Shown here piece by piece: positions 3,492 through 31,406 of a stretch of 64,000 nt of DNA. Made by a program: the position numbers and the translations under genes. Source of the stretch: Patescibacteria group bacterium (lineage in GTDB: Bacteria > Patescibacteriota > Patescibacteriia > UM-FILTER-42-10). The stretch covers positions 3,654 through 67,653 of the forward strand of contig JBAYGW010000005.1 in assembly GCA_041666485.1 (NCBI GenBank), read 5' to 3'. Position 1 is the stretch's first letter. Each line of letters starts with the position of its first letter. Under the pieces are notes generated by a model. That model did no database searches and was not told where the DNA came from. It was given only the letters and a program-made list of their open reading frames with translations.

Positions 3492-4634
3492 CTATTCTCC
3501 CAATATTAATACATCAACATCTTTCTTTTCCTGAGTGATACGCACGAATTTAGTTGCAAATAAAATCATGAAAATTAAGGATGTAAACGAATTGATTAAG
3601 GTCAAAAATATAAATCCGAACAAATTTAACGCAAAGAATAAACTTAAAGCCAAAAGCGGTGTGATGAAATCCTCGTACGGTCCCAGGAACTGAAATGCGT
3701 ATTTGCGAATAATTTTTGCAATCACTTCCGAAAGTTTATCCGACCCCTTGGCGTCAATACCGACACTTTTGATAAATTCATCACGGGCATCGTTAATCTG
3801 CTCCTGAAAAATATTTTGTACGAAAGCAGATGATACCAGAGTTTGCGCGGATAGATCTTCGCTGTACAGACTATCCCGAATTTCGGGCGGCAGGGCATTA
3901 ATATCCACTTCCCCGCTCAGCACCTTGTTCCGCAAGTCATCAATCAGCGCCTGACCTTCTTTCACCTTCGGGCTGTTTATTGAATCTTCCAACTCTTGAT
4001 TCAGCTGACCACTGATACTTTCCACTACGCCGGCGCTCGTTTCAAAAATAAACTGGTCAAGCGTTTTGTCCGGATCATATCCTTTGATCTGAGTTGGGAT
4101 GATTTCATTGGCAATATTGGTGCTACTTATAATCAAAGAGTCAATTGCCTGACGCCCGCTATCTCTGTCCTGTTCCGAAGTAACGATATAGAATAGCATG
4201 GAAATAGAGAGCGCCATTGCCACCACCACTCCGCCGATTCCCCAGTGCATGATCTTGTACAAGGAAAACTTGATTCTTCCTTTCACCTCGTTATGCGTCC
4301 GGTGCGCATAGTACACGAAGATTAATATCTGTAAAAGAGAGATAATTAAAAGCCAGGGTGAGAAAGAGAAAAAGAGAAGCATCGGCAAACTGGAGAGCGC
4401 CCAGATTGGCAATTGGATTACTTCTTTCTTCACTACGATCGCGGTTGTGCTTACCAAAGCCAGATAAAAACAAAAAGCAATGACCGGGAAGATTAACCGG
4501 AGCAGCATCTGCCAGATGGATAGGTTTTGGCCGGACCATTCCAGATTGAAAACCGTAGACAAAGCATACCAAGCCAGCACGCTGGCTAAAACAGTCAGCA
4601 CCCCTAAAACAGCTATTTTGGTATTCTTGGTCAT
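3492..4634 (-). CDS. Hypothetical membrane protein (inserted between dnaK and dnaJ)
   Basis: 380-aa ORF with several N-terminal TM helices, a central acidic soluble region and C-terminal TM helices. No family recognised. Confidence 0.45.
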
Positions 4635-4651: not shown

Positions 4652-4972
4652 TTATGCTTTGAAGCCGACTTCGTCCGCCGGAGCATCCGTAACATCTATT
4701 GTACCAAAATTTGCCTCATAGCGCTTGACGTTGTCCTGCAGTGCCAAAAGAACACGTTTCATGTGGCCCGGTGAGGTTTTTACGCGGTTGGTAACCACGC
4801 CCACGCCTTCCGCCTGGTGAATATTGATAAAATCAATCGTAAACTCGTCTTTGGTATGCATGACGCGCATGCTGTTCGCGTAATTGGATCCGGCTAATAC
4901 GCTTTCCGGGATCTTAATTTGCATTTGTCGCTGTTGCCCTTGCGGGGGCTGTTGGCTTTGTTGTTGTGGCAT
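4652..4972 (-). CDS. Small hypothetical protein, DUF3467-like
   Basis: 106 aa, Q-rich N-terminus. Motif 'YANSMRVMHTKDEFTIDF' resembles the DUF3467 core as recalled from memory. Confidence 0.4.
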   Translation of the reverse strand: MPQQQSQQPPQGQQRQMQIKIPESVLAGSNYANSMRVMHTKDEFTIDFINIHQAEGVGVVTNRVKTSPGHMKRVLLALQDNVKRYEANFGTIDVTDAPADEVGFKA

Positions 4973-4980
4973 GGGTATTA

Positions 4981-6045
4981 TTATAGTTGGTTAATTAATT
5001 TGGTAAGCTTCTCTTTGGTAAATGTATTCATCTGCCACTTGCCAAGTCTCGCATACAATCTATTTGCCAAGTCACTTGGTCTGTTCGGGTTAGGGATGAT
5101 TTCAGCAATGAGTTGTTGTGATTTTTTCCAAGCGTCGTTTCCGTACGTCCAAGTATCTATTCCTCCTCCTTCATATGCCGGATCAATCCAAAGTGAAAAC
5201 GTGGTCTTGCCGTGATCATGTTCTACGGTGATAGTAGCCGTCTTTGGCGTTTTGTGGGCTGACACACCAGGTAGCACGAATCTGCCCTCGTTAATATCAT
5301 GAAATATATCCAAATATTCTTGCGCGGGTTTTTCTTGTTTGACTTCGGTATAGGCAGAAATAAAGTCTTGATCAGAGGGTAATCCCGGCTTTGTTTTGGA
5401 GGTCAGGTCTTTTTTCACTTCACTGCCGAATAACCTCGGGATGACTATTTCGTATGACCCATGCTTGTAGTATTTAAGTTCCACGGCGAAGATATCAAAT
5501 TCGCTGTTTTGGTTGATGTAAATGATGAGGTTTTTTAGCTGTTCGTGGAGCGAATCCATGAGTACCACGAATTTGAAACTGCCATCCTGGAAGCTTCGCC
5601 GTACTTGCTGGAGCAATTGGTCACGGCCTTCGTCAGTAAGCCCAAAGAATTCTTGCATTCTGGTGGGCAGTTCCGGTAGATTTTGTTTTACTAAATATGT
5701 ATTCAATTGCTCAAGGAAAGTATTCGCGTCACGTGTGTTGTGCCACAAGGACGCGCCGTAATCCAAGACCTGGGCGACTACTTTGCGCTTGTCCGGATTT
5801 TTATACAGCTTCGTTTCGATCAAATAAATGTCTCCGGTGTTGTCTATACCGACCGCATCAATGGGTCCGCTGTCAGTGGAAAATTCCCGGGCGAGAATAA
5901 GCAGTTTAATATCGTCTCTAATGTCATAGATCGGAACGCTTTCTGGGTTGTTGAAAATGTATTCTTGCAGAGAGTCTTCTTGGGGGAATGATGTAGGGTC
6001 TACTTTCTCCGCTCTTTTGCCGTTGTGAGTGATAATTAATGTCAT
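4981..6045 (-). CDS. Predicted PD-(D/E)xK nuclease (NucS/DUF91-like catalytic core) with an uncharacterised C-terminal domain
   Basis: 'GPIDAVGIDNTGDIYLIETKLYKN...VVAQVLDYGASLWH' matches the D...D-x-E-x-K plus 'QxxxY' architecture of NucS/DUF91/Shedu-type nucleases. About 230 aa of unknown function follow. Confidence 0.55.
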   Translation of the reverse strand: MTLIITHNGKRAEKVDPTSFPQEDSLQEYIFNNPESVPIYDIRDDIKLLILAREFSTDSGPIDAVGIDNTGDIYLIETKLYKNPDKRKVVAQVLDYGASLWHNTRDANTFLEQLNTYLVKQNLPELPTRMQEFFGLTDEGRDQLLQQVRRSFQDGSFKFVVLMDSLHEQLKNLIIYINQNSEFDIFAVELKYYKHGSYEIVIPRLFGSEVKKDLTSKTKPGLPSDQDFISAYTEVKQEKPAQEYLDIFHDINEGRFVLPGVSAHKTPKTATITVEHDHGKTTFSLWIDPAYEGGGIDTWTYGNDAWKKSQQLIAEIIPNPNRPSDLANRLYARLGKWQMNTFTKEKLTKLINQL

Positions 6046-6125
6046 ATGTGGATGGTATTTTTAATTTTAATAAATATTCCATTAAACTGAAGGTGGGAAT
6101 GCGCATTCCCACCTTCAGCTACTGT

Positions 6126-8048
6126 TTACTTATCCTTTTTTTCTTCTTTCTTTTCCTCAGTAAACTCGCCTTCTACCGGTTCTTTGTCTCCTTCTTTTTT
6201 CTCACCGGATTTATCAGCGTCGGCTTTTTTAGCCGCTTCTTCTTTCTGTTGTGCTTCATACATCGCCTGCCCGATCTTCTGGGCGGCGGTGGAGAGTTCT
6301 TCGGTCGCTTTTTTGATCGCTTCCACGTCGTCTTTGTCTTTCACATCATTAACCGCTTTTACCTTTTCTTCCACAGCTTTTTTATCTTCTTCCTTAATCT
6401 TATCTCCGCCTTCTTTGATCGCTTTTTCAGAAGTGATCACCATGGTTTCCGCCATGTTGCGGGCTTCAATCAGATTTTTCTTTTTCTTATCTTCTTCAGC
6501 GTGGATTTCCGCGTCTTTCTTCATCTTTTCCACTTCCTCATCGGACAGTCCGGAAGAAGCTTCAATACGGATGCTTTGTTCTTTATTGGTTGCTTTATCC
6601 TTTGCTTTCACGCTCAGAATTCCGTTGGCATCAATATCAAAGCCGACTTCCACCTGCGGGATTCCGCGCGGTGACGGAGGAATGCCATCCAGGATGAATC
6701 TGCCCAGTGATTTGTTATCGCTGGCCATTTCTCTTTCACCCTGCAGGACGTGAATCTCCACCGATGTCTGATTGTCTGCTGCGGTAGAAAATACCTGACT
6801 CTTGGATGCTGGGATTGTGGTGTTCTTTTCAATTAGCGGTGTGCGTACTCCGCCTAAAGTTTCGATACCTAGTGTTAACGGTGTAACGTCCAATAACAGC
6901 ACGTCTTTTACTTCTCCCTGCAAAACGCCGGCTTGTACAGCAGCGCCGATTGCTACTACTTCATCCGGGTTTACGGTTGAGTTCGGTTTTTTGCCGAAGA
7001 ATTCTTCTACCTTCTTCTGTACCAAAGGCATTCTGGTTTGTCCGCCGACTAATACGATTTCATTCATGTCTTTGGCTTCCAGGCCGGCATCTTTCAATGC
7101 CTTTTTGCAAGGTTCCAGAGTCTTTTCCACGAAATCACCGACAATATCTTCCAGTTTGGCGCGGGTCAGTTTTAATACCAAATGTTTCGGGCCGGATTCA
7201 TCCGTTGTGATGAACGGCTGGTTGATTTCCGTTTCCTGCGTGGATGACAGTTCTATTTTGGCTTTTTCCGCGGCTTCCTTGATTCTCTGCAGAGCCAGAT
7301 TGTCCTTGGACAGGTCAATTCCCTGATCCTTTTTGAATTCATCCAGAATCCAATGCATGATGCGCTGGTCAAAGTCATCTCCGCCGAGGTGCGTGTCGCC
7401 GTTGGTGGCTTTCACTTCCACAGTGTCATCGCCGATTTCCAAAATGGAAATATCAAATGTTCCGCCGCCCAAGTCATAGACCGCGATCTTTTCGTCTTTC
7501 TTCTTGTTGAACCCGTAAGCCAGCGCTGCGGCGGTCGGTTCGTTGATAATTCTTTTTACGTCAAACCCGGCAATCTTGCCCGCGTCTTTGGTCGCCTGCC
7601 TCTGTGAGTCGTCAAAATAGGCCGGTACGGTAATTACCGCTTCGGTTATTTTCTCACCCAGTTTGTCTTCGGCATCCGCCTTCAGTTTCTGCAGAATCAT
7701 CGCGGATACTTCCTGCGGGGTGTGCTGTTTATCACCCATTTTTACCGTCACACCGTCATTGTTTTTTTCAATTTTGTACGGAAGAGTCTTCGCATCATTC
7801 TGGACCTCATCATCTTCCCATCTGCGACCGATCAGACGCTTCACGGAAAATACCGTATTTTCCGGATTGGTTACCGCCTGTCTTTTGGCCAGCTGGCCGA
7901 CTAAGCGTTCTCCGCTTTTGGAAATTGCGACCACGGAAGGAGTGGTGCGGTTTCCTTCTTTATTTTCCAGCACTTTCGGCTCGCCCCCTTCAACGATCGC
8001 CATCGCTGAGTTGGTGGTACCGAGATCAATACCTAATATCTTTGCCAT
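6126..8048 (-). CDS. dnaK: Chaperone DnaK (Hsp70)
   Basis: '[16 protein letters not shown]', 'DLGGGTFD' and full Hsp70 architecture with a K/E-rich tail. Confidence 0.96.
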
Positions 8049-9141: not shown

Positions 9142-9861
9142 TTACAAATTAGTTATAAGCTCCTGAGTGTATTTGATCAGCGCCCGGTTGTGGGAGTAAT
9201 TCATCCGCATCGGACCGAGGATTGCGATCAAACCCTCTTTATGGTCACTTTGAAATTTAGTTAAAATTGTACTGCATTGCTTGCCGAACGGATTATTTTT
9301 CCCCAGTAGAATATGCACGTCTCTGCTGATATCGTTGTAAATTCCCGCTACCGCTTCGTCCAGATGATCAATCACTTCGCTCAAATTGTAAATTAGATTC
9401 AGCTCGGCAAATTCCGGTTGTCGGAAAACATTGGTCAGACCGGTATAGTAAATATCTCTGGGCGAAAACCCCACCACCACCGCGCCGTTGGAAAGCGCCG
9501 CGACTTCCTTTGCCACCTGTTTCACCACCAATGAATCCTCGTTGTCTGATTTAAGAATTTCCTGCAACTGACTTTTGTGCTTTTCGCTTAAATCCTTTTC
9601 ATCCATAAAATTATCAATAAAAAAGCGGTAACCTTTTTCTGTTGGAATTCGTCCTGCTGAAGTATGGGGCTGAGTCAGATAGCCGTCTTTCTCCAGATCC
9701 ATCATTTCGTTGCGGATGGTGGCTGTAGACAAGTCAAAACCGCCTTTACCCACCAATAGGTTAGAACCAACCGGTATGGCGGTTTTAATATGCTGTTTGA
9801 TGATTGCCGCAAGCAGGGCTTTTTTACGATCGTTTAGCTCCATATTTGTATCCATTAGCAC
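9142..9861 (-). CDS. hrcA: Heat-inducible transcription repressor HrcA (short form). The true start is probably the downstream Met at 9843, because the CIRCE operator overlaps the first ATG.
   Basis: N-terminal winged-helix 'RKKALLAAIIKQHIKTAIPVGSNLL'. Position upstream of grpE-dnaK. CIRCE lies immediately 5'. Confidence 0.75.
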   Translation of the reverse strand: MLMDTNMELNDRKKALLAAIIKQHIKTAIPVGSNLLVGKGGFDLSTATIRNEMMDLEKDGYLTQPHTSAGRIPTEKGYRFFIDNFMDEKDLSEKHKSQLQEILKSDNEDSLVVKQVAKEVAALSNGAVVVGFSPRDIYYTGLTNVFRQPEFAELNLIYNLSEVIDHLDEAVAGIYNDISRDVHILLGKNNPFGKQCSTILTKFQSDHKEGLIAILGPMRMNYSHNRALIKYTQELITNL

Positions 9862-9881
9862 TCTTAATGGTAGAGTGCTAA
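9855..9881. promoter_or_regulatory. CIRCE operator (HrcA binding site), perfect inverted repeat TTAGCACTC-N9-GAGTGCTAA
   Basis: Exact match to the CIRCE consensus at 9855-9863 / 9873-9881. Confidence 0.9.
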
Positions 9882-26230: not shown

Positions 26231-26266
26231 CCTAGTGTCAAAGCATATGTGTAGCTACGGGAAGGC

Positions 26267-26374
26267 ATCAGTACCCATTGCGAATCCTGATTCGCCAGCT
26301 GGCGAACGAAGGGTGAAGCAACCCCGATATATCAGCACCCATTGCGAACCTTGTGCAACAAGGTGTGGCAATCC
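26267..26374. repeat. Two tandem ~45-58-nt units with conserved flanks (TCAGYACCCATTGCGAAYC ... GGTGNRGCAAYCCC) and different perfect palindromes at the core
   Basis: Unit 1 core is TTCGCCAGCTGGCGAA (26290-26305). Unit 2 core is CCTTGTgcaACAAGG (26348-26362). Confidence 0.5.
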
Positions 26375-26561
26375 CGTTCCTTTTGACTTAAGTGTATCCA
26401 TTCCGGGGGTCTTCTCCTGTCTTTTGCTTTCATCCTTATGTGTGGCCCCGGTCCCAGATTTTGGGGTTTTCTCGTTGTTCTTCTTAATAAAACAAAATGG
26501 TGGTAAAATACAGGATATAAAGAAAATAAGTGTTTATGAATTAATCTAATTATATTTTCAC

Positions 26562-27632
26562 ATGAAAAATGGTAAGCATAAGAATAATGTAGTAGAGCTT
26601 TTTTCAGGTTGCGGTGGTTTTTCTTGTGGTTTTGAAAAAGCGGGATTTAATATTTTTTTAGGAGTCGATAATGATCAACCATCTTTAGATACATTTAAAA
26701 AAAATCATCAAAATTCAGTAGTCATGAATTTAGATTTATCACGAAATAATGCAATCGATAAAATTATTAAAGTTACTAATGGAACGAAGGTTGATATTAT
26801 AATTGCTGGTCCTCCATGCCAGGGTTTCTCTTTAACTGGAACCAGACTAAAAGATGATAAAAGGAATAAATTATTTAATACCGTTTTTGATTTAGCAGAA
26901 CATTTAAAACCAAAAGCAATCATAATAGAAAACGTTCCAGGCCTCGAAACACTTTATGGAGGTGTAGCAAAAAAAAGGATTTTAGAAAGATATGATGAGT
27001 TAGGTTATGAAGTAACTAGCCATGTACTTTTTGCACCAGATTTTGGTGTACCACAGATTAGAAAAAGAATTGTTTTTGTAGGAATATTAAAAAAAATTGG
27101 TAAAAAATTCATTTTTTCAAAACCATTGCTTAATAAAGACAATTATGTAAATTGTGAAGAGGCAATTGGTGACTTGCCAAAACGAGAAAAAGAGTTTGGG
27201 AATGAAGTTGATAAGTATATAAAGGCACCAAAAACTAAATACCAAAAAGAGATGAGGGGAAAAACAATAAAGTTATTTAATCACGTAAGCACAAAACATT
27301 CACCCCATGTTATTGATGTTATCTCCCAAGTACCGGAAGGTGGCAACTACAAAAACTTACCGAAAGGTGTTGGAGAAACAAGAAAATTCAACGAGGCATG
27401 GACACGTTATCATAGTAAAAAACCATCAAAAACAATAGATACGGGTCATAGAAATCATTTTCATTACAAATATAATCGTGTGCCTACTGTTAGAGAAAAC
27501 GCACGTTTACAGTCTTTTCCTGATCATTTTATATTCACTGGAAGCAAAACTCAACAATATAGGCAGGTTGGTAACGCTGTACCTCCACTATTAGCATATT
27601 CTATTGCAAAAGAATTATTGAAGTATATTTAA
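26562..27632 (+). CDS. DNA (cytosine-5)-methyltransferase, copy 1
   Basis: Motif I 'LFSGCGGFSCGF', motif IV 'GPPCQGFS', motif VI 'ENVPGL', motif X 'GNAVPP'. Very AT-rich gene. Confidence 0.9.
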   Translation: MKNGKHKNNVVELFSGCGGFSCGFEKAGFNIFLGVDNDQPSLDTFKKNHQNSVVMNLDLSRNNAIDKIIKVTNGTKVDIIIAGPPCQGFSLTGTRLKDDKRNKLFNTVFDLAEHLKPKAIIIENVPGLETLYGGVAKKRILERYDELGYEVTSHVLFAPDFGVPQIRKRIVFVGILKKIGKKFIFSKPLLNKDNYVNCEEAIGDLPKREKEFGNEVDKYIKAPKTKYQKEMRGKTIKLFNHVSTKHSPHVIDVISQVPEGGNYKNLPKGVGETRKFNEAWTRYHSKKPSKTIDTGHRNHFHYKYNRVPTVRENARLQSFPDHFIFTGSKTQQYRQVGNAVPPLLAYSIAKELLKYI

Positions 27633-27636
27633 CTCT

Positions 27637-28866
27637 ATGTCTAGAAAAAGAAAAGTTAATGTAATAGACTTATTTGCAGGTTGCGGTGGATTAACTGATG
27701 GTTTTGAGTATAAAAATAATTACAATATCTTAGCTACTGTTGAATGGGATAAACAATGCTGCAATACGTTGCAAAATAGATTATCTAAAAAATGGGGTTA
27801 TAAAAATGCGGCAGATTTGGTATTAAACTTTGATATTCAAAGAATAAAAGAATTACTAACTGGTTGGAAAAATGATGTAAAATACGGAAATAATGTCGGC
27901 CTTAAAAAACTAATAGGGAAAAATAAAGTTGATGTAATAGTAGGCGGACCACCATGTCAGGCATACTCTGTGGCCGGAAGAATTAGAGATAAAAATGGGA
28001 TGCACACAGACTATAGGAATTTTCTTTTTGAAAGTTACATTGCTTTAGTTAAAGAATTTAAACCTAAATTCTTTATTTTTGAAAACGTGCCTGGAATATT
28101 GAGTGCAAAACCTGGTGGAATCTCAATTATTGACAGAATAAGAGAATCATTTGGTAAAATAGGATACACCATTGCTGATGACTTAAGAAAAATAGCTATT
28201 GTTGACAGCTCTGATTTTGGTGTTCCTCAAATTAGAAAAAGAGTCATTATTTTAGGTGTAAACAAAAACGTTTATCGTAATAATGCCAACGAAATTATAA
28301 GGGATTTCTACTTCAATATTTTACCTTCCTTGAAATTTAAAAATAAGATGACTGTTAAAGATGCCTTGAATGACTTACCTAAATTCTTTCCATTGAATGA
28401 AAATAAACATAATAATCAATCCCACTCAATTTCCAAAAAATCAAATATATATAATCACATACCTAGATTTCATAGTAAAAGAGATATTGAAATATTTAAA
28501 ATACTTACTAATGATATTAAAAAAAGAGAAAATAAGTATACTTCTATTGCAGAGCTAAAAAAATTGTACTTCAAATTTACTGGAAAAAATTCTAATATCC
28601 ACAAATATCATGTTTTAAAAGAAGATGAACCAAGTAACACTATACCTGCTCACTTATATAAAGACGGTTTAAGACATATTCACCCTGACCCAAAACAAGC
28701 AAGAAGTATAACAGTAAGGGAGGCAGCTAGATTACAAAGCTTTGAAGATAATTTTGAATTTTTAGGAACCATGGGAGATCAATATAAAATGATTGGAAAT
28801 GCCGTCCCCCCAAAATTAGCATATGCTATTTCTGAAGCATTGTATAATTTAATTGAAAAATATTAA
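27637..28866 (+). CDS. DNA (cytosine-5)-methyltransferase, copy 2 (larger target-recognition region)
   Basis: Motif I 'LFAGCGGLTDGF', motif IV 'GGPPCQAYS', motif VI 'ENVPGIL', motif X 'GNAVPP'. Confidence 0.9.
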   Translation: MSRKRKVNVIDLFAGCGGLTDGFEYKNNYNILATVEWDKQCCNTLQNRLSKKWGYKNAADLVLNFDIQRIKELLTGWKNDVKYGNNVGLKKLIGKNKVDVIVGGPPCQAYSVAGRIRDKNGMHTDYRNFLFESYIALVKEFKPKFFIFENVPGILSAKPGGISIIDRIRESFGKIGYTIADDLRKIAIVDSSDFGVPQIRKRVIILGVNKNVYRNNANEIIRDFYFNILPSLKFKNKMTVKDALNDLPKFFPLNENKHNNQSHSISKKSNIYNHIPRFHSKRDIEIFKILTNDIKKRENKYTSIAELKKLYFKFTGKNSNIHKYHVLKEDEPSNTIPAHLYKDGLRHIHPDPKQARSITVREAARLQSFEDNFEFLGTMGDQYKMIGNAVPPKLAYAISEALYNLIEKY

Positions 28867-28883
28867 GCAATAATTTATATTTT

Positions 28884-29870
28884 ATGCCAAAATTTTACAT
28901 AAAAAAATTAACCCCCCAAGAACTTGGATATCGTTCAGGTAGACCAAAAGGTGGCGGTAGATATTTTTATGTTTCAAAGGATTGTTTAGAATTTTTCCCC
29001 CCTTTATCTGAAAACATACTCAATGATTCAGTTTTAATACCTATAATTCCTCCATTCTCGAATAATAAAGTATATAGTAATTTTGTTTATCATAATGATA
29101 AACATGCAATTGAAAACGGTACGAGGGATGAATATAGACTCTATCTTAATAAACAGATTGATCCTAATGGTGAATATTTTAGCATTGACGACATTGTTGT
29201 TTTTGAAAAACAAGAAGAAAAAATTGATCAAGAAATTATTCCAACATATTTTTTAAACAGATTTTTAGCGAGTGCACCAGAATACAATATCTTAAACAAT
29301 ATAATTGAAAAATCTGAAATCAGAGGTGGACATGCACTATATGATGGTGAGCTTTCTGTTTCAACACAAACAACTAAATTTTCTGCAGATAATCGAGTAA
29401 TAATTCCTGAAGAAGTTGAAAAAGAAGTAAAAGATAAACTTACTGAAAACGAAGAAGAAATGGGTGCACACTTATTTAATTCAATAAGTTTTAGGGATTT
29501 TGTCTTAAATAGTTATGGTTATAAATGTGCAATCACAAATAAATCAATCACATGGAAAAATCTTAATAATTTAGAGGCTGCACACATTAAACCGAAATCA
29601 CACAGAGGAAGTTTTCTGCCATGTAATGGAATAGCCTTGTCAAGAGATATGCACTGGGCATTTGATAAAGGATTTATCTCCATAAACGACGATTATACAG
29701 TTTTAGTACACAAGGACGTGAAAGAAACAATGCTTAAAGAAATAGACGGAAAGAAAATTAACTTACCAATAGAAGATTTCTTTAAACCAAACAAAGAGTA
29801 TCTTAAACATCACAGAGAAAATGTATTCGGTCTATTTCATCATTCAGGATCGTTAAGGTCAATTAATTAA
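28884..29870 (+). CDS. Putative restriction endonuclease, HNH (His-Me finger) family, cognate to the adjacent methyltransferases
   Basis: C-terminal 'YKCAITN...LEAAHIKPKSH...NGIALSRDMHWAFDKG' HNH signature. N-terminal region resembles a DNA-binding module. Operonic with the two MTases. Confidence 0.6.
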   Translation: MPKFYIKKLTPQELGYRSGRPKGGGRYFYVSKDCLEFFPPLSENILNDSVLIPIIPPFSNNKVYSNFVYHNDKHAIENGTRDEYRLYLNKQIDPNGEYFSIDDIVVFEKQEEKIDQEIIPTYFLNRFLASAPEYNILNNIIEKSEIRGGHALYDGELSVSTQTTKFSADNRVIIPEEVEKEVKDKLTENEEEMGAHLFNSISFRDFVLNSYGYKCAITNKSITWKNLNNLEAAHIKPKSHRGSFLPCNGIALSRDMHWAFDKGFISINDDYTVLVHKDVKETMLKEIDGKKINLPIEDFFKPNKEYLKHHRENVFGLFHHSGSLRSIN

Positions 29871-30122
29871 ATCAACAAATGTATTTTTAGATTAGGCCGA
29901 ACAGATGCGGATAAATACCCATTACAATACCACTCATGACAAAAATACAAAAAATTGTGGAATATTTCAAAATAAGCAATATGTTCAAATAACAGCAAGT
30001 TATCAGACATAATTTTTATATAATTTTGTTAATTTCCCACGTAACTTGTAGAATTCAGAAATAATGAATAAAGTTTCATTATCATTCAACCAAAACAATA
30101 TTCACAAATAACCATAGATACT

Positions 30123-31406
30123 ATGAAAACACGTTTTCAAACAATGTCTATAAATCGTCTCTTTAAGTATCGTGAAAGAATCGATTTAGAACCGTCTTTT
30201 CAGCGTGAGAAAGTTTGGTCCAGTGACAAGCAACAACACTTCCTAGACACACTTCTAAAAGGTTGGGGAGTGCCAAAATTATACCTTCAACTAGATGAAA
30301 GCCCATCGGGTAAAAGAAACTACATCTGTATTGATGGGAAGCAACGCCTTACATCAGTTTTTTCTTTTTTAGAAAATCGTATACCTCTTAGTAAAAAATA
30401 CTCAGGTGAATTTGGTGGCAAATATTATCTTGATTTACCAGATAAAATTCAGAATAAATTTGATGACTATAAACTTCATATCGAGGAAGTAACTGATCCG
30501 GAAGAAAAGGAAATGAGCGAGCTTTTTAAGCGGTTGCAGCTTGGCTCACCACTCAACTCGGGAGAGAAGCTAATGGCTATAGTTGGAGATATGCACAATC
30601 TTGTAAAGAAATATTCCGTCCATCCATTTTTTAAAAAGAAAGTGGCATTACCGAATACTAGATATGCTCATTTTACTGTATGTGCTCAGGTTTGTTGCTT
30701 AGAGACTGTTGGGATTACAGATATCCCACTTCGCAAATTAGAATTGTTTTTTTCGAGCCACGAGGATTTTCGTAGCAGTGGTTTTGAACTTAAAACAAAG
30801 ATACAAAAAATTAAAGAAGTGCTAGATTATCTCAACAAAATGTTCGCCGCAGAATCACCTGACCTTCGCAATAGAGCAAGTGTAGTATCTATTTATCTAC
30901 TTGTATCTGATTTGATAGATAAGGGAAATATTAAAGGGAAGGAAAATAAATTAAGACGGTTCTTTGCAACATTTACAAAAGAATTACGAAATGAAATTGA
31001 AAAAGGTGTTGGGGCAAAGGACGCACAATTTATAAACTATCAGTCAGCGATTATTCAGGGTGCTGATGATCAAAAGTCTATCAAACTTAGGAGAGAAATA
31101 TTATTGAATAAACTTTATAGTTACGATCCTTTTTTCTATCGAATTATGCATCCACAACTTTCTCCAATTGAAAAATTTAGTAATTTATATGGGAACGTGG
31201 AAGATCGTCTCGGAAACTCGCAGCGAGTAGATGATTGGCTGGTAAGTAAAAAACCGAGAATCAAAACCGTGACTTGTCGAGGTAAAAAAGAGACGTTTAT
31301 AACACATATTAGACATTGCATCCACCATAATAAACATGGTAAATACACAAAATTAGATCTTCGTAATGCAACAAACTTATTAAATCAAATAGGCACTCCA
31401 ACCTAA
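30123..31406 (+). CDS. DUF262 (ParB/Srx-like) domain protein with a His-rich C-terminus. GmrSD-like candidate type IV restriction enzyme.
   Basis: DUF262 blocks 'EPSFQREKVWS', 'LLKGWGVPKLYL', 'IDGKQRLTS'. C-terminal 'HIRHCIHHNKHG...NATNLL' may be a degenerate His-Me finger. Confidence 0.6.
   Translation: MKTRFQTMSINRLFKYRERIDLEPSFQREKVWSSDKQQHFLDTLLKGWGVPKLYLQLDESPSGKRNYICIDGKQRLTSVFSFLENRIPLSKKYSGEFGGKYYLDLPDKIQNKFDDYKLHIEEVTDPEEKEMSELFKRLQLGSPLNSGEKLMAIVGDMHNLVKKYSVHPFFKKKVALPNTRYAHFTVCAQVCCLETVGITDIPLRKLELFFSSHEDFRSSGFELKTKIQKIKEVLDYLNKMFAAESPDLRNRASVVSIYLLVSDLIDKGNIKGKENKLRRFFATFTKELRNEIEKGVGAKDAQFINYQSAIIQGADDQKSIKLRREILLNKLYSYDPFFYRIMHPQLSPIEKFSNLYGNVEDRLGNSQRVDDWLVSKKPRIKTVTCRGKKETFITHIRHCIHHNKHGKYTKLDLRNATNLLNQIGTPT

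Follow-up and report, generated by a model that had tools for sequence, protein, structure and literature searches.

The stretch of DNA analysed here (64,000 nucleotides from a Patescibacteria group bacterium, positions 3,654 to 67,653 of contig JBAYGW010000005.1 in assembly GCA_041666485.1; hereafter the window) carries heat-shock genes in the order hrcA-grpE-hsp20-dnaK-X-DUF3467-membrane protein-dnaJ, in which gene X (4981..6045, minus strand) encodes a predicted two-domain nuclease of 354 amino acids (aa). X is flanked upstream by dnaK (6126..8048, minus strand) of the hrcA-grpE-hsp20-dnaK operon, and downstream by a gene of the DUF3467 family (4652..4972, minus strand; Pfam DUF3467, E 2.6e-20). 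In the list of open reading frames, that of X extends from an ATG to the stop codon at 4981-4983, and its product is 100% identical to MFA6525004.1, which is annotated as 'hypothetical protein' in a Patescibacteria metagenome-assembled genome (MAG).

Searches of a database clustered at 90% identity retrieved 1,548 proteins matching X at E<=1e-3, nearly all of them 350-370 aa long, while the family profile of X recovered 4,318 clusters at 50% identity, including 318 at E<=1e-30. Conservation was analysed in an alignment of 30 sequences sharing 45-88% identity with X (hereafter A1). Eleven residues of the nuclease core (E54, D63, E77, T78, K79, D85, K86, R87, Q92, D95 and Y96) are invariant in all 30 sequences, as are E189, Y193 and E199, and every one of these residues is retained in the window copy. 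Judged by its sequence, X is a real and conserved gene.

The predicted N-terminal domain, a NucS-like PD-(D/E)xK nuclease delimited by PADLOC, BLASTP, AlphaFold2 (AF2) and Foldseek, spans residues 1-210 (5416..6045, minus strand, like all features within X given below). In the whole-protein model, obtained with AF2 run on A1 (predicted local distance difference test score, pLDDT, of 78), residues 1-206 form a single domain, followed by a low-confidence linker (residues 211-217) and a second domain. The first part of the nuclease domain consists of helix 23-32, strands 49-57, 60-67 and 73-77, and helix 86-103. The second part comprises a helical insertion (residues ~105-155; 5581..5733) of three helices (107-120, 126-134 and 138-153), strand 157-163, helix 168-180, and the last two strands of the domain (184-195 and 198-206; 5428..5496), which include the motif 'AVELKYYKH'. 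Within the catalytic core (residues 54-96; 5758..5886), D63 (codon 5857-5859) is positioned on the second core strand, E77-x-K79 (codons 5815-5817 and 5809-5811, respectively) at the end of the third, and Q92xxxY96 within helix 86-103, after the ExK strand; in the model, this layout is the NucS/RecB-type PD-(D/E)xK arrangement. A first-pass annotation of the window had recognised in X a NucS-like core with a catalytic D, a D/E-x-K motif and a Q..Y helix, on the basis of a peptide that is indeed found at residues ~28-101. Both the core and the motif hold, D63, E77-x-K79 and Q92xxxY96 being invariant in the 30 homologues, and the structure model suggested there as a check places D63, E77 and K79 on a core whose order of elements fits the expected alpha-beta-beta-beta-alpha-beta.

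The kinship with NucS emerged from several comparisons. The Pfam family NucS_C matches X below its threshold (E 0.09; 13.2 bits versus a gathering threshold of 24), as it does all 30 members of A1 (best E 4.4e-4), and it is the sole Pfam family to match more than two of them. The NCBIfam NucS model NF003270 matches X with E 9.5e-5, aligning residues 19-100 with model positions 126-198. In a Foldseek search of the full AF2 model against the PDB, the first three ranks were taken by NucS (2vld) and EndoMS (5gke) with E values of 0.01-0.017 and probabilities of 0.95-1.00, followed by the AdnAB nuclease and Card1. NucS/EndoMS, the mismatch endonuclease of archaea and actinobacteria, thus shares with X the catalytic fold and the D / ExK / QxxxY residues; it differs in possessing an N-terminal domain for DNA binding and dimerisation, which X lacks, so that the domain order of X, with the nuclease N-terminal, is reversed. 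Moreover, NucS/EndoMS is a core repair gene, whereas X is an accessory gene. The identification of X as a true NucS/EndoMS was rejected, since this N-terminal domain is missing and the score (21.6 bits) lies far under the family cut-off of 216. Membership of Shedu was likewise rejected. The nuclease of Shedu resembles NucS, and Shedu (SduA, DUF4263), like X, is a single-gene defence system with a PD-(D/E)xK nuclease, although its nuclease domain is C-terminal. The Shedu/DUF4263 resemblance proposed for X in the first-pass annotation did not materialise: no Shedu or DUF4263 hidden Markov model in Pfam or PADLOC matched X at E<=10, and no Shedu structure was present among the top 50 Foldseek matches in the PDB. 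By these comparisons, X has a NucS-like catalytic domain and is neither NucS nor Shedu.

The closest defence family is the PADLOC candidate family PDC-S11, of which profile PDLC04916 matches residues 10-204 of X with E 1.3e-15, ahead of PDC-S18 (E 1e-8). A tblastn search of plasmids with X retrieved 262 records, mostly from Klebsiella, Enterobacter and Escherichia. Among the encoded proteins, WP_013023770.1 from a Klebsiella plasmid (393 aa) is a full-length PDC-S11 (PDLC04913, E 6e-169), composed of the nuclease domain and a Pfam DUF4268 domain at residues 238-372. BLASTP aligned it with residues 20-214 of X at 25% identity (E 2e-11), and no significant alignment was obtained past residue 214. 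The two groups are bridged by the family member P0174, whose N-terminal domain is 53% identical to that of X (E 1e-78), whose C-terminal domain is of the DUF4268 type, and whose alignment with the Klebsiella PDC-S11 runs over the full length (E 3e-17); the clade of X therefore includes canonical 'NucS + DUF4268' proteins. These alignments indicate that the nuclease domain of X is homologous to the PDC-S11 nuclease, and that X differs from the canonical members by a domain swap.

The same alignments redefine the boundaries within X. Because the PDC-S11 alignment, which contains the helical insertion of X, extends to residue 204-214, the nuclease domain reaches about 210 aa, and the unassigned C-terminal domain shrinks from the ~230 aa initially estimated to ~135-140 aa. 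The stretch FDIFAVELKYYKH, read in the first-pass annotation as a second D...ExK-like motif, does occur at residues 183-195, where it corresponds to strand 184-195 of the same nuclease domain. The counterpart of this stretch in the Klebsiella PDC-S11 reads 'QCFKATPY', so that E189 is opposite non-acidic residues and is not conserved there; since this protein is a bona fide PDC-S11, E189 is a clade-specific residue, and a second catalytic site was rejected.

Three proteins of comparable design have been characterised. PDC-S11 of Escherichia coli ECOR34, renamed Madara, consists of an N-terminal NucS-like PD-(D/E)xK nuclease, a linker and an 'EVE-like' C-terminal domain; its defence acts on T4(ghmC), spares T4(C) and is abolished by the substitution D63A (bioRxiv 10.64898/2026.09.05.749240). 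Madara and X are alike in being single proteins of ~355-390 aa with an N-terminal NucS-like nuclease, a linker and a C-terminal domain of ~140 aa; their catalytic aspartates bear the same number, D63, and both families occur in defence or mobile contexts. They differ in the C-terminal domain, which is EVE-like in Madara and DUF4268 in the Klebsiella PDC-S11, with no DUF4268 similarity in X; N-terminal identity between PDC-S11 and X is merely ~25%, and the function of X is predicted from homology. MdgA (NucS + DUF4268) protects against T4, and the purified enzyme degrades T4 (glucosyl-hydroxymethylcytosine) DNA far better than unmodified T4-GT7 DNA, whereas its E77A variant is inactive (bioRxiv 10.1101/2025.02.28.640651). 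Compared through the motif encoded by a mutagenic primer of that study, VIV[E>A]NKLDD, MdgA aligns with LIETKLYKN of X (E77, K79), and the two share the architecture class and E77 in an (I/V)-E-x-K-L motif; they differ in the C-terminal domain, DUF4268 in MdgA and another type, termed type A below, in X. Finally, END-Mag (MDV2503288) combines a NucS-like nuclease with an inactive EndoIII/Ogg domain and restricts phages with modified guanine (PMC12191111). According to this description, it resembles X in joining a NucS-like nuclease to a swappable C-terminal sensor and is modification-dependent, although its sensor has a helix-hairpin-helix glycosylase fold, in contrast to the alpha/beta sandwich of X, for which no such match was found. 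DUF4268 also accompanies the GmrSD Type IV enzymes (PMC4619093).

The C-terminal part of X (linker and type A domain, residues 215-354; 4984..5403) was modelled separately. AF2 run on these residues alone gave a pLDDT of 88 and a predicted TM-score of 0.83, with a fold of two helices, a four-stranded antiparallel sheet, a further helix, a fifth strand and a final helix. In the model, residues 215-354 thus form a well-folded domain of their own in the place that DUF4268 occupies in Madara/MdgA, and they are proposed to act as a sensor or specificity module. Conserved residues include D225, F228, K265-T-P-K268 (K265, P267 and K268), W299 and K336-W337; this set of aromatic residues and lysines could, speculatively, line a binding pocket. 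No Pfam family, DUF4268 included, was common to the C-terminal domains of 26 type A proteins, and a profile search of the domain against PDB sequences returned no match. Foldseek likewise gave nothing significant against BFVD or against the PDB, where weak resemblances to alpha/beta sandwiches of the frataxin or SycE type came closest (best E 0.2). Searching the database with the type A profile yielded only three fragments and missed the full-length family itself, and is uninformative on other architectures.

When the C-terminal domains of 345 family members were cut out and clustered, 171 (including X) fell into type A, 129 into type B and 11 into type C, with many singletons; the remaining cluster consisted of P0174 paired with the Klebsiella DUF4268 domain. 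Profile comparison with hhalign gave a probability of 0.1% between type A and DUF4268, 58% between types A and B over the first 42 residues only (linker and first helices), and 91% between types B and C. A single type of nuclease domain, conserved at 53-60% identity, is thus found with C-terminal domains of type A, B, C or DUF4268, or with singletons, and at least three C-terminal domain types appear to have been swapped onto it.

On this evidence, X would be a defence endonuclease of the PDC-S11/Madara/MdgA class that works alone, as a single polypeptide, a reading to which we assign a probability of about 0.55. X shares the plan of that class (a single gene, ~350-390 aa, two domains) and, apart from the genes of a mobile element described below, neighbour clustering found no gene conserved beside it across loci; the PADLOC match to PDC-S11 is also in keeping with the single-gene defence nuclease suggested at first. 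From the architecture and the three characterised relatives, we infer a sensor role for the C-terminal domain and a dependence on modified DNA. The feature read by the type A domain would be carried by invading DNA and would most likely be a non-canonical (hypermodified) base; its recognition would allow the N-terminal nuclease domains, which would probably form a dimer, to cleave this DNA. X would thereby resemble a Type IV restriction enzyme and require no cognate methyltransferase.

Several observations weigh against this interpretation. Taken in absolute terms, the structural similarity that Foldseek found to NucS is weak (E 0.01, TM-score 0.2-0.3), and proteins with a type A C-terminal domain are known from sequence alone. 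That domain is near-neutral (isoelectric point 6.8) and not obviously DNA-binding, and it matches no known modified-base reader (SRA, EVE/PUA, YTH, winged helix, EndoIII or DUF4268), so that the modification dependence of X is argued solely by architectural analogy. The genes found at the position of X in related genomes (DUF218, membrane proteins, an IS200-like transposase) are not recognisably defence genes. Furthermore, the hosts and mobile elements of X also encode methyltransferases, namely two C5-cytosine enzymes in the window and a ParB-N6/N4 fusion in the element. X therefore cannot attack 5-methylcytosine, N6-methyladenine and N4-methylcytosine indiscriminately; tolerance of these common marks fits the targeting of hypermodified bases, as in Madara/MdgA, or a wholly different cue.

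The distribution of X was surveyed in one genome per species from 185,579 species, a pattern-limited scan that confirmed, as a lower bound, at least 145 X loci, most of them from many classes of Patescibacteria. Other hosts are Geobacterales (Trichlorobacter, Geobacter), Longimicrobiaceae, Ignavibacteriota and Verrucomicrobiia, as well as the archaeal Woesearchaeota and Thermoplasmata; the X-type nuclease module is thus abundant in Patescibacteria and scattered in other bacteria and archaea. The homologue of Trichlorobacter thiogenes ATCC BAA-34 (L038:7992-9062, NZ_FUWR01000010.1) aligns over its full length, type A domain included, at 43% identity. The N-terminal domain is 53-60% identical across these host groups, and such high identity combined with a patchy spread points to horizontal transfer. 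Many MAGs titled 'uncultured Gammaproteobacteria', 'Pseudomonadales' or 'Paludibacter' (e.g. L006, L012, L015, L019 and L024) carry a gene or element typical of Patescibacteria, and their labels are probably wrong.

Neighbourhoods outside the window were examined with crude gene calls and neighbour clustering, the parts being named with Pfam and PHROGs. Of about 80 loci examined in other genomes, about 30 had X within or beside a small mobile element. This recurrent integrative mini-element of ~6-9 kb occurs mostly in Patescibacteria (typical copy L024:3579-12357) and has around X the order ParB-N6/N4-methyltransferase fusion (with or without a second methyltransferase), small terminase subunit (TerS), large terminase subunit (TerL; phrog_38, E 1.4e-72), XRE regulator, X, small genes that vary between copies, and large serine recombinase. 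Further copies are present in L006, L011, L012, L017, L019-L035, L057 and L180, with two X-bearing copies in MAG UBA6180 (L025 and L027). A scan of viral contigs with a single TerL sequence had found nothing; an alignment-based, TerL-centred scan of the same kind of contigs yielded 34 pairs of TerL and serine recombinase, and defined a core element of ParB-methyltransferase, TerS, TerL and serine recombinase. Core-only copies include L185, L190, L203 and L217. Most of the 34 pairs lack X, and in 17 of them the slot contains no cargo at all, which makes X an optional cargo. In sister elements, the slot between TerL and the serine recombinase is occupied by Type IIG restriction-modification (R-M) genes, Type II methyltransferases, PDC-S14, a DRT-type reverse transcriptase or an HKD+Snf2 protein, and in one case by a canonical PDC-S11 (L219:4495-5436; PDLC04911, E 1e-120). 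With terminase genes and no capsid or portal genes, the mini-element looks like a phage satellite with a hotspot for defence cargo. X itself is a mobile accessory cargo gene.

This association raises the question of whether X serves the element, in packaging, excision, replication or interference with a helper phage. X lies directly 3' of TerL in ~25-30 loci, and the combination of terminase genes with missing capsid genes, as in a phage satellite, would suit such a role. However, the element is often complete with an empty slot or with other cargo, X is found on either flank and in either orientation, and most X copies, that of the window included, have no element genes nearby. X is also rare in viral contigs (7 loci among 2.9 million), and phage GenBank records contained no homologue. 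A function in the service of the element is accordingly an unlikely explanation, somewhat more so than the toxin-like one considered next.

In 19 loci, the XRE regulator adjoins X in divergent transcription, suggesting the tight control of a toxic gene. This would be expected if X were an abortive-infection or toxin nuclease, whose C-terminal domain senses a cue other than DNA (a phage protein or a small molecule) and triggers non-specific DNA degradation. Such a role would also accommodate a type A domain that is neither basic nor similar to known base-reader folds, and for Madara itself a 'non-specific abortive response' has been left possible (bioRxiv 10.64898/2026.09.05.749240). On the other hand, the tested relatives discriminate on DNA modification, MdgA in vitro and Madara and END-Mag in vivo, and many X copies, including that of the window, lack an adjacent regulator or antitoxin. 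We consider this explanation unlikely, although it is the best placed of the alternatives to a modification-dependent defence endonuclease.

Genes within two positions of X, over all loci, include Type IIG R-M genes, methyltransferases, mad2 and Cas4-like nucleases (raw counts). Copies 78-83% identical to X occupy differing neighbourhoods: the copy in L085 adjoins pilin genes and Fic, that in L089 follows a serine recombinase, that in L006 follows the whole element, and that in L087 adjoins TerL. The L087 copy, 78% identical to X, lies beside a dense candidate defence island (L087:9620-17074) encoding a PDDEXK_1 nuclease, a PycTM-domain protein, a KAP NTPase (1,021 aa), a SWI2/SNF2-ResIII helicase and an N6/N4 methyltransferase. 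A location in defence islands, proposed as a check in the first-pass annotation, is seen for the family, in islands and mobile elements, and not for the window copy, which occupies a strain-variable slot and has no recognisable defence neighbours.

As regards novelty, the first-pass annotation had considered a new architecture as an option. This does not stand, because the nuclease-first, two-domain plan has been known since 2025-26 from PDC-S11, Madara and MdgA and is listed by PADLOC as a candidate family; what is new is confined to the C-terminal domain. Madara/MdgA have been described solely as a NucS-like nuclease with DUF4268. What is added here is a large, mainly Patescibacteria branch whose C-terminal domains (type A, and the related B and C) match nothing known, the evidence that C-terminal domains swap on a highly conserved nuclease, and the carriage of the gene as cargo of a terminase-bearing, capsid-less integrative mini-element. 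More tentatively, and with odds clearly below even, type A may be a previously unrecognised sensor fold that gives this Patescibacteria-wide branch a specificity not seen in known Type IV enzymes, for a DNA modification typical of the phages of ultra-small bacteria or for a non-DNA trigger, and the nuclease with its interchangeable C-terminal domains may be a general plug-in defence platform. It would be spread by a new class of integrative mini-elements, with terminase but without capsid genes, which would act in these bacteria as phage satellites carrying defence genes. If types A, B and C are sensors, they would be candidate new readers of DNA modification and tools for detecting hypermodified phage DNA, and would open a first way into how uncultivated ultra-small bacteria defend themselves and into the DNA chemistry of their phages. 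The homologue of the cultured T. thiogenes ATCC BAA-34 represents an experimentally tractable source.

Methyltransferases are present in the window at a distance from X. A low-GC island (26235-31406; GC 0.29-0.36 versus 0.42 for the window) contains two adjacent genes for C5-cytosine DNA methyltransferases (26562-27632 and 27637-28866), matching M.HaeIII-like enzymes in phmmer searches of the PDB with E values of 1e-36 and 3e-31, respectively. They are followed by a gene for a 328-aa protein, which in its C-terminal part is similar to the HNH domain of PDB 6yex (E 5.5e-6), and by one for a 427-aa protein with no match. From its sequence features, the island probably represents an R-M system that has two methyltransferases and was gained by horizontal transfer.

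A methylation-blocked, Type II-like restriction endonuclease whose methyltransferase is encoded elsewhere, by the element or by the C5 pair at 26.5-28.9 kb of the window, would be another way to account for X, given that methyltransferases are core genes of the element and that the small XRE protein often found next to X resembles an R-M controller protein. However, the methyltransferases of the element are present with or without X, while those of the window lie 20 kb away in their own low-GC island, where the HNH-domain neighbour is the better partner. No methyltransferase adjoins X in the window or in many solitary loci, and such solitary copies are common and keep the catalytic residues. 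Together with the modification dependence of all characterised relatives, this makes a Type II-like enzyme improbable.

Comparison with related genomes shows how X is placed in the window. A perfect hairpin with a 14-bp stem (6087..6118, minus strand), detected by a terminator scan and by reading of the sequence, is found just past the dnaK stop codon and resembles a terminator or attenuator; X starts 41 nt beyond it, after an AT-rich stretch, and the start of the DUF3467 gene is 8 nt past the X stop codon, with the membrane-protein gene and dnaJ following. Relatives show different hairpins at the same place after dnaK. In L090, the nearest relative (DnaK 99% and DUF3467 98% identical; 87% nucleotide identity overall), blastn homology to the window ends at 6150 and resumes at 4983, which is the X stop codon, and the intervening lineage-specific cassette (4984..6149, minus strand) has no counterpart there. 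The corresponding slot of L090 measures 1,539 bp and contains two unrelated genes, for a 144-aa protein and a DUF218 protein.

The slot was compared further in 80 metagenomic loci, chosen for having the DnaK closest to that of the window; X is absent from all of them. The gap between dnaK and the DUF3467 gene (window 4973-6125; equivalents in L090-L146) varies from 0 to ~5.6 kb and is filled with unrelated genes, a different set in nearly every relative: DUF218, membrane proteins, NUDIX-like genes and, in L092, an IS200-like transposase. In L136, L137 and L142 no gene intervenes between the two, and the order dnaK, DUF3467, dnaJ is ancestral. The GC content of X (0.436) is unremarkable, and a dedicated search found no mini-element genes within the 64-kb window. 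X is thus a lineage-specific acquisition in this genome, which entered the variable slot that separates the terminator-like hairpin of dnaK from the DUF3467 gene. A conserved partnership of X with DUF3467, dnaK or dnaJ was considered and rejected, such a context being seen for the window copy only.

At the start of hrcA, a perfect CIRCE operator (controlling inverted repeat of chaperone expression; 9855-9881, TTAGCACTC-N9-GAGTGCTAA) was detected with 0 mismatches, and with none in 100 shuffles; hrcA-grpE-hsp20-dnaK is therefore probably under HrcA control. The location of X inside hrcA-grpE-hsp20-dnaK-...-dnaJ with this operator, and its NucS-like catalytic domain, might suggest a housekeeping or stress DNA-repair nuclease similar to NucS/EndoMS, expressed with the heat-shock operon. 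Yet X lies downstream of the dnaK hairpin, lacks the N-terminal domain of NucS and falls far short of its cut-off, is missing from the 80 dnaK loci nearest to that of the window, L090 having unrelated genes in its place, and is patchy and horizontally spread. A repair role is thus very unlikely.

The DUF3467 gene downstream of X is conserved between dnaK and dnaJ in many heat-shock operons of Patescibacteria, which suggests a chaperone-related role for its product. In one other locus, a DUF3467-like gene (L001:11643-11909) was found 2.5 kb downstream of an X homologue, with a BsaWI-type R-M pair between the two; this is probably a coincidence.

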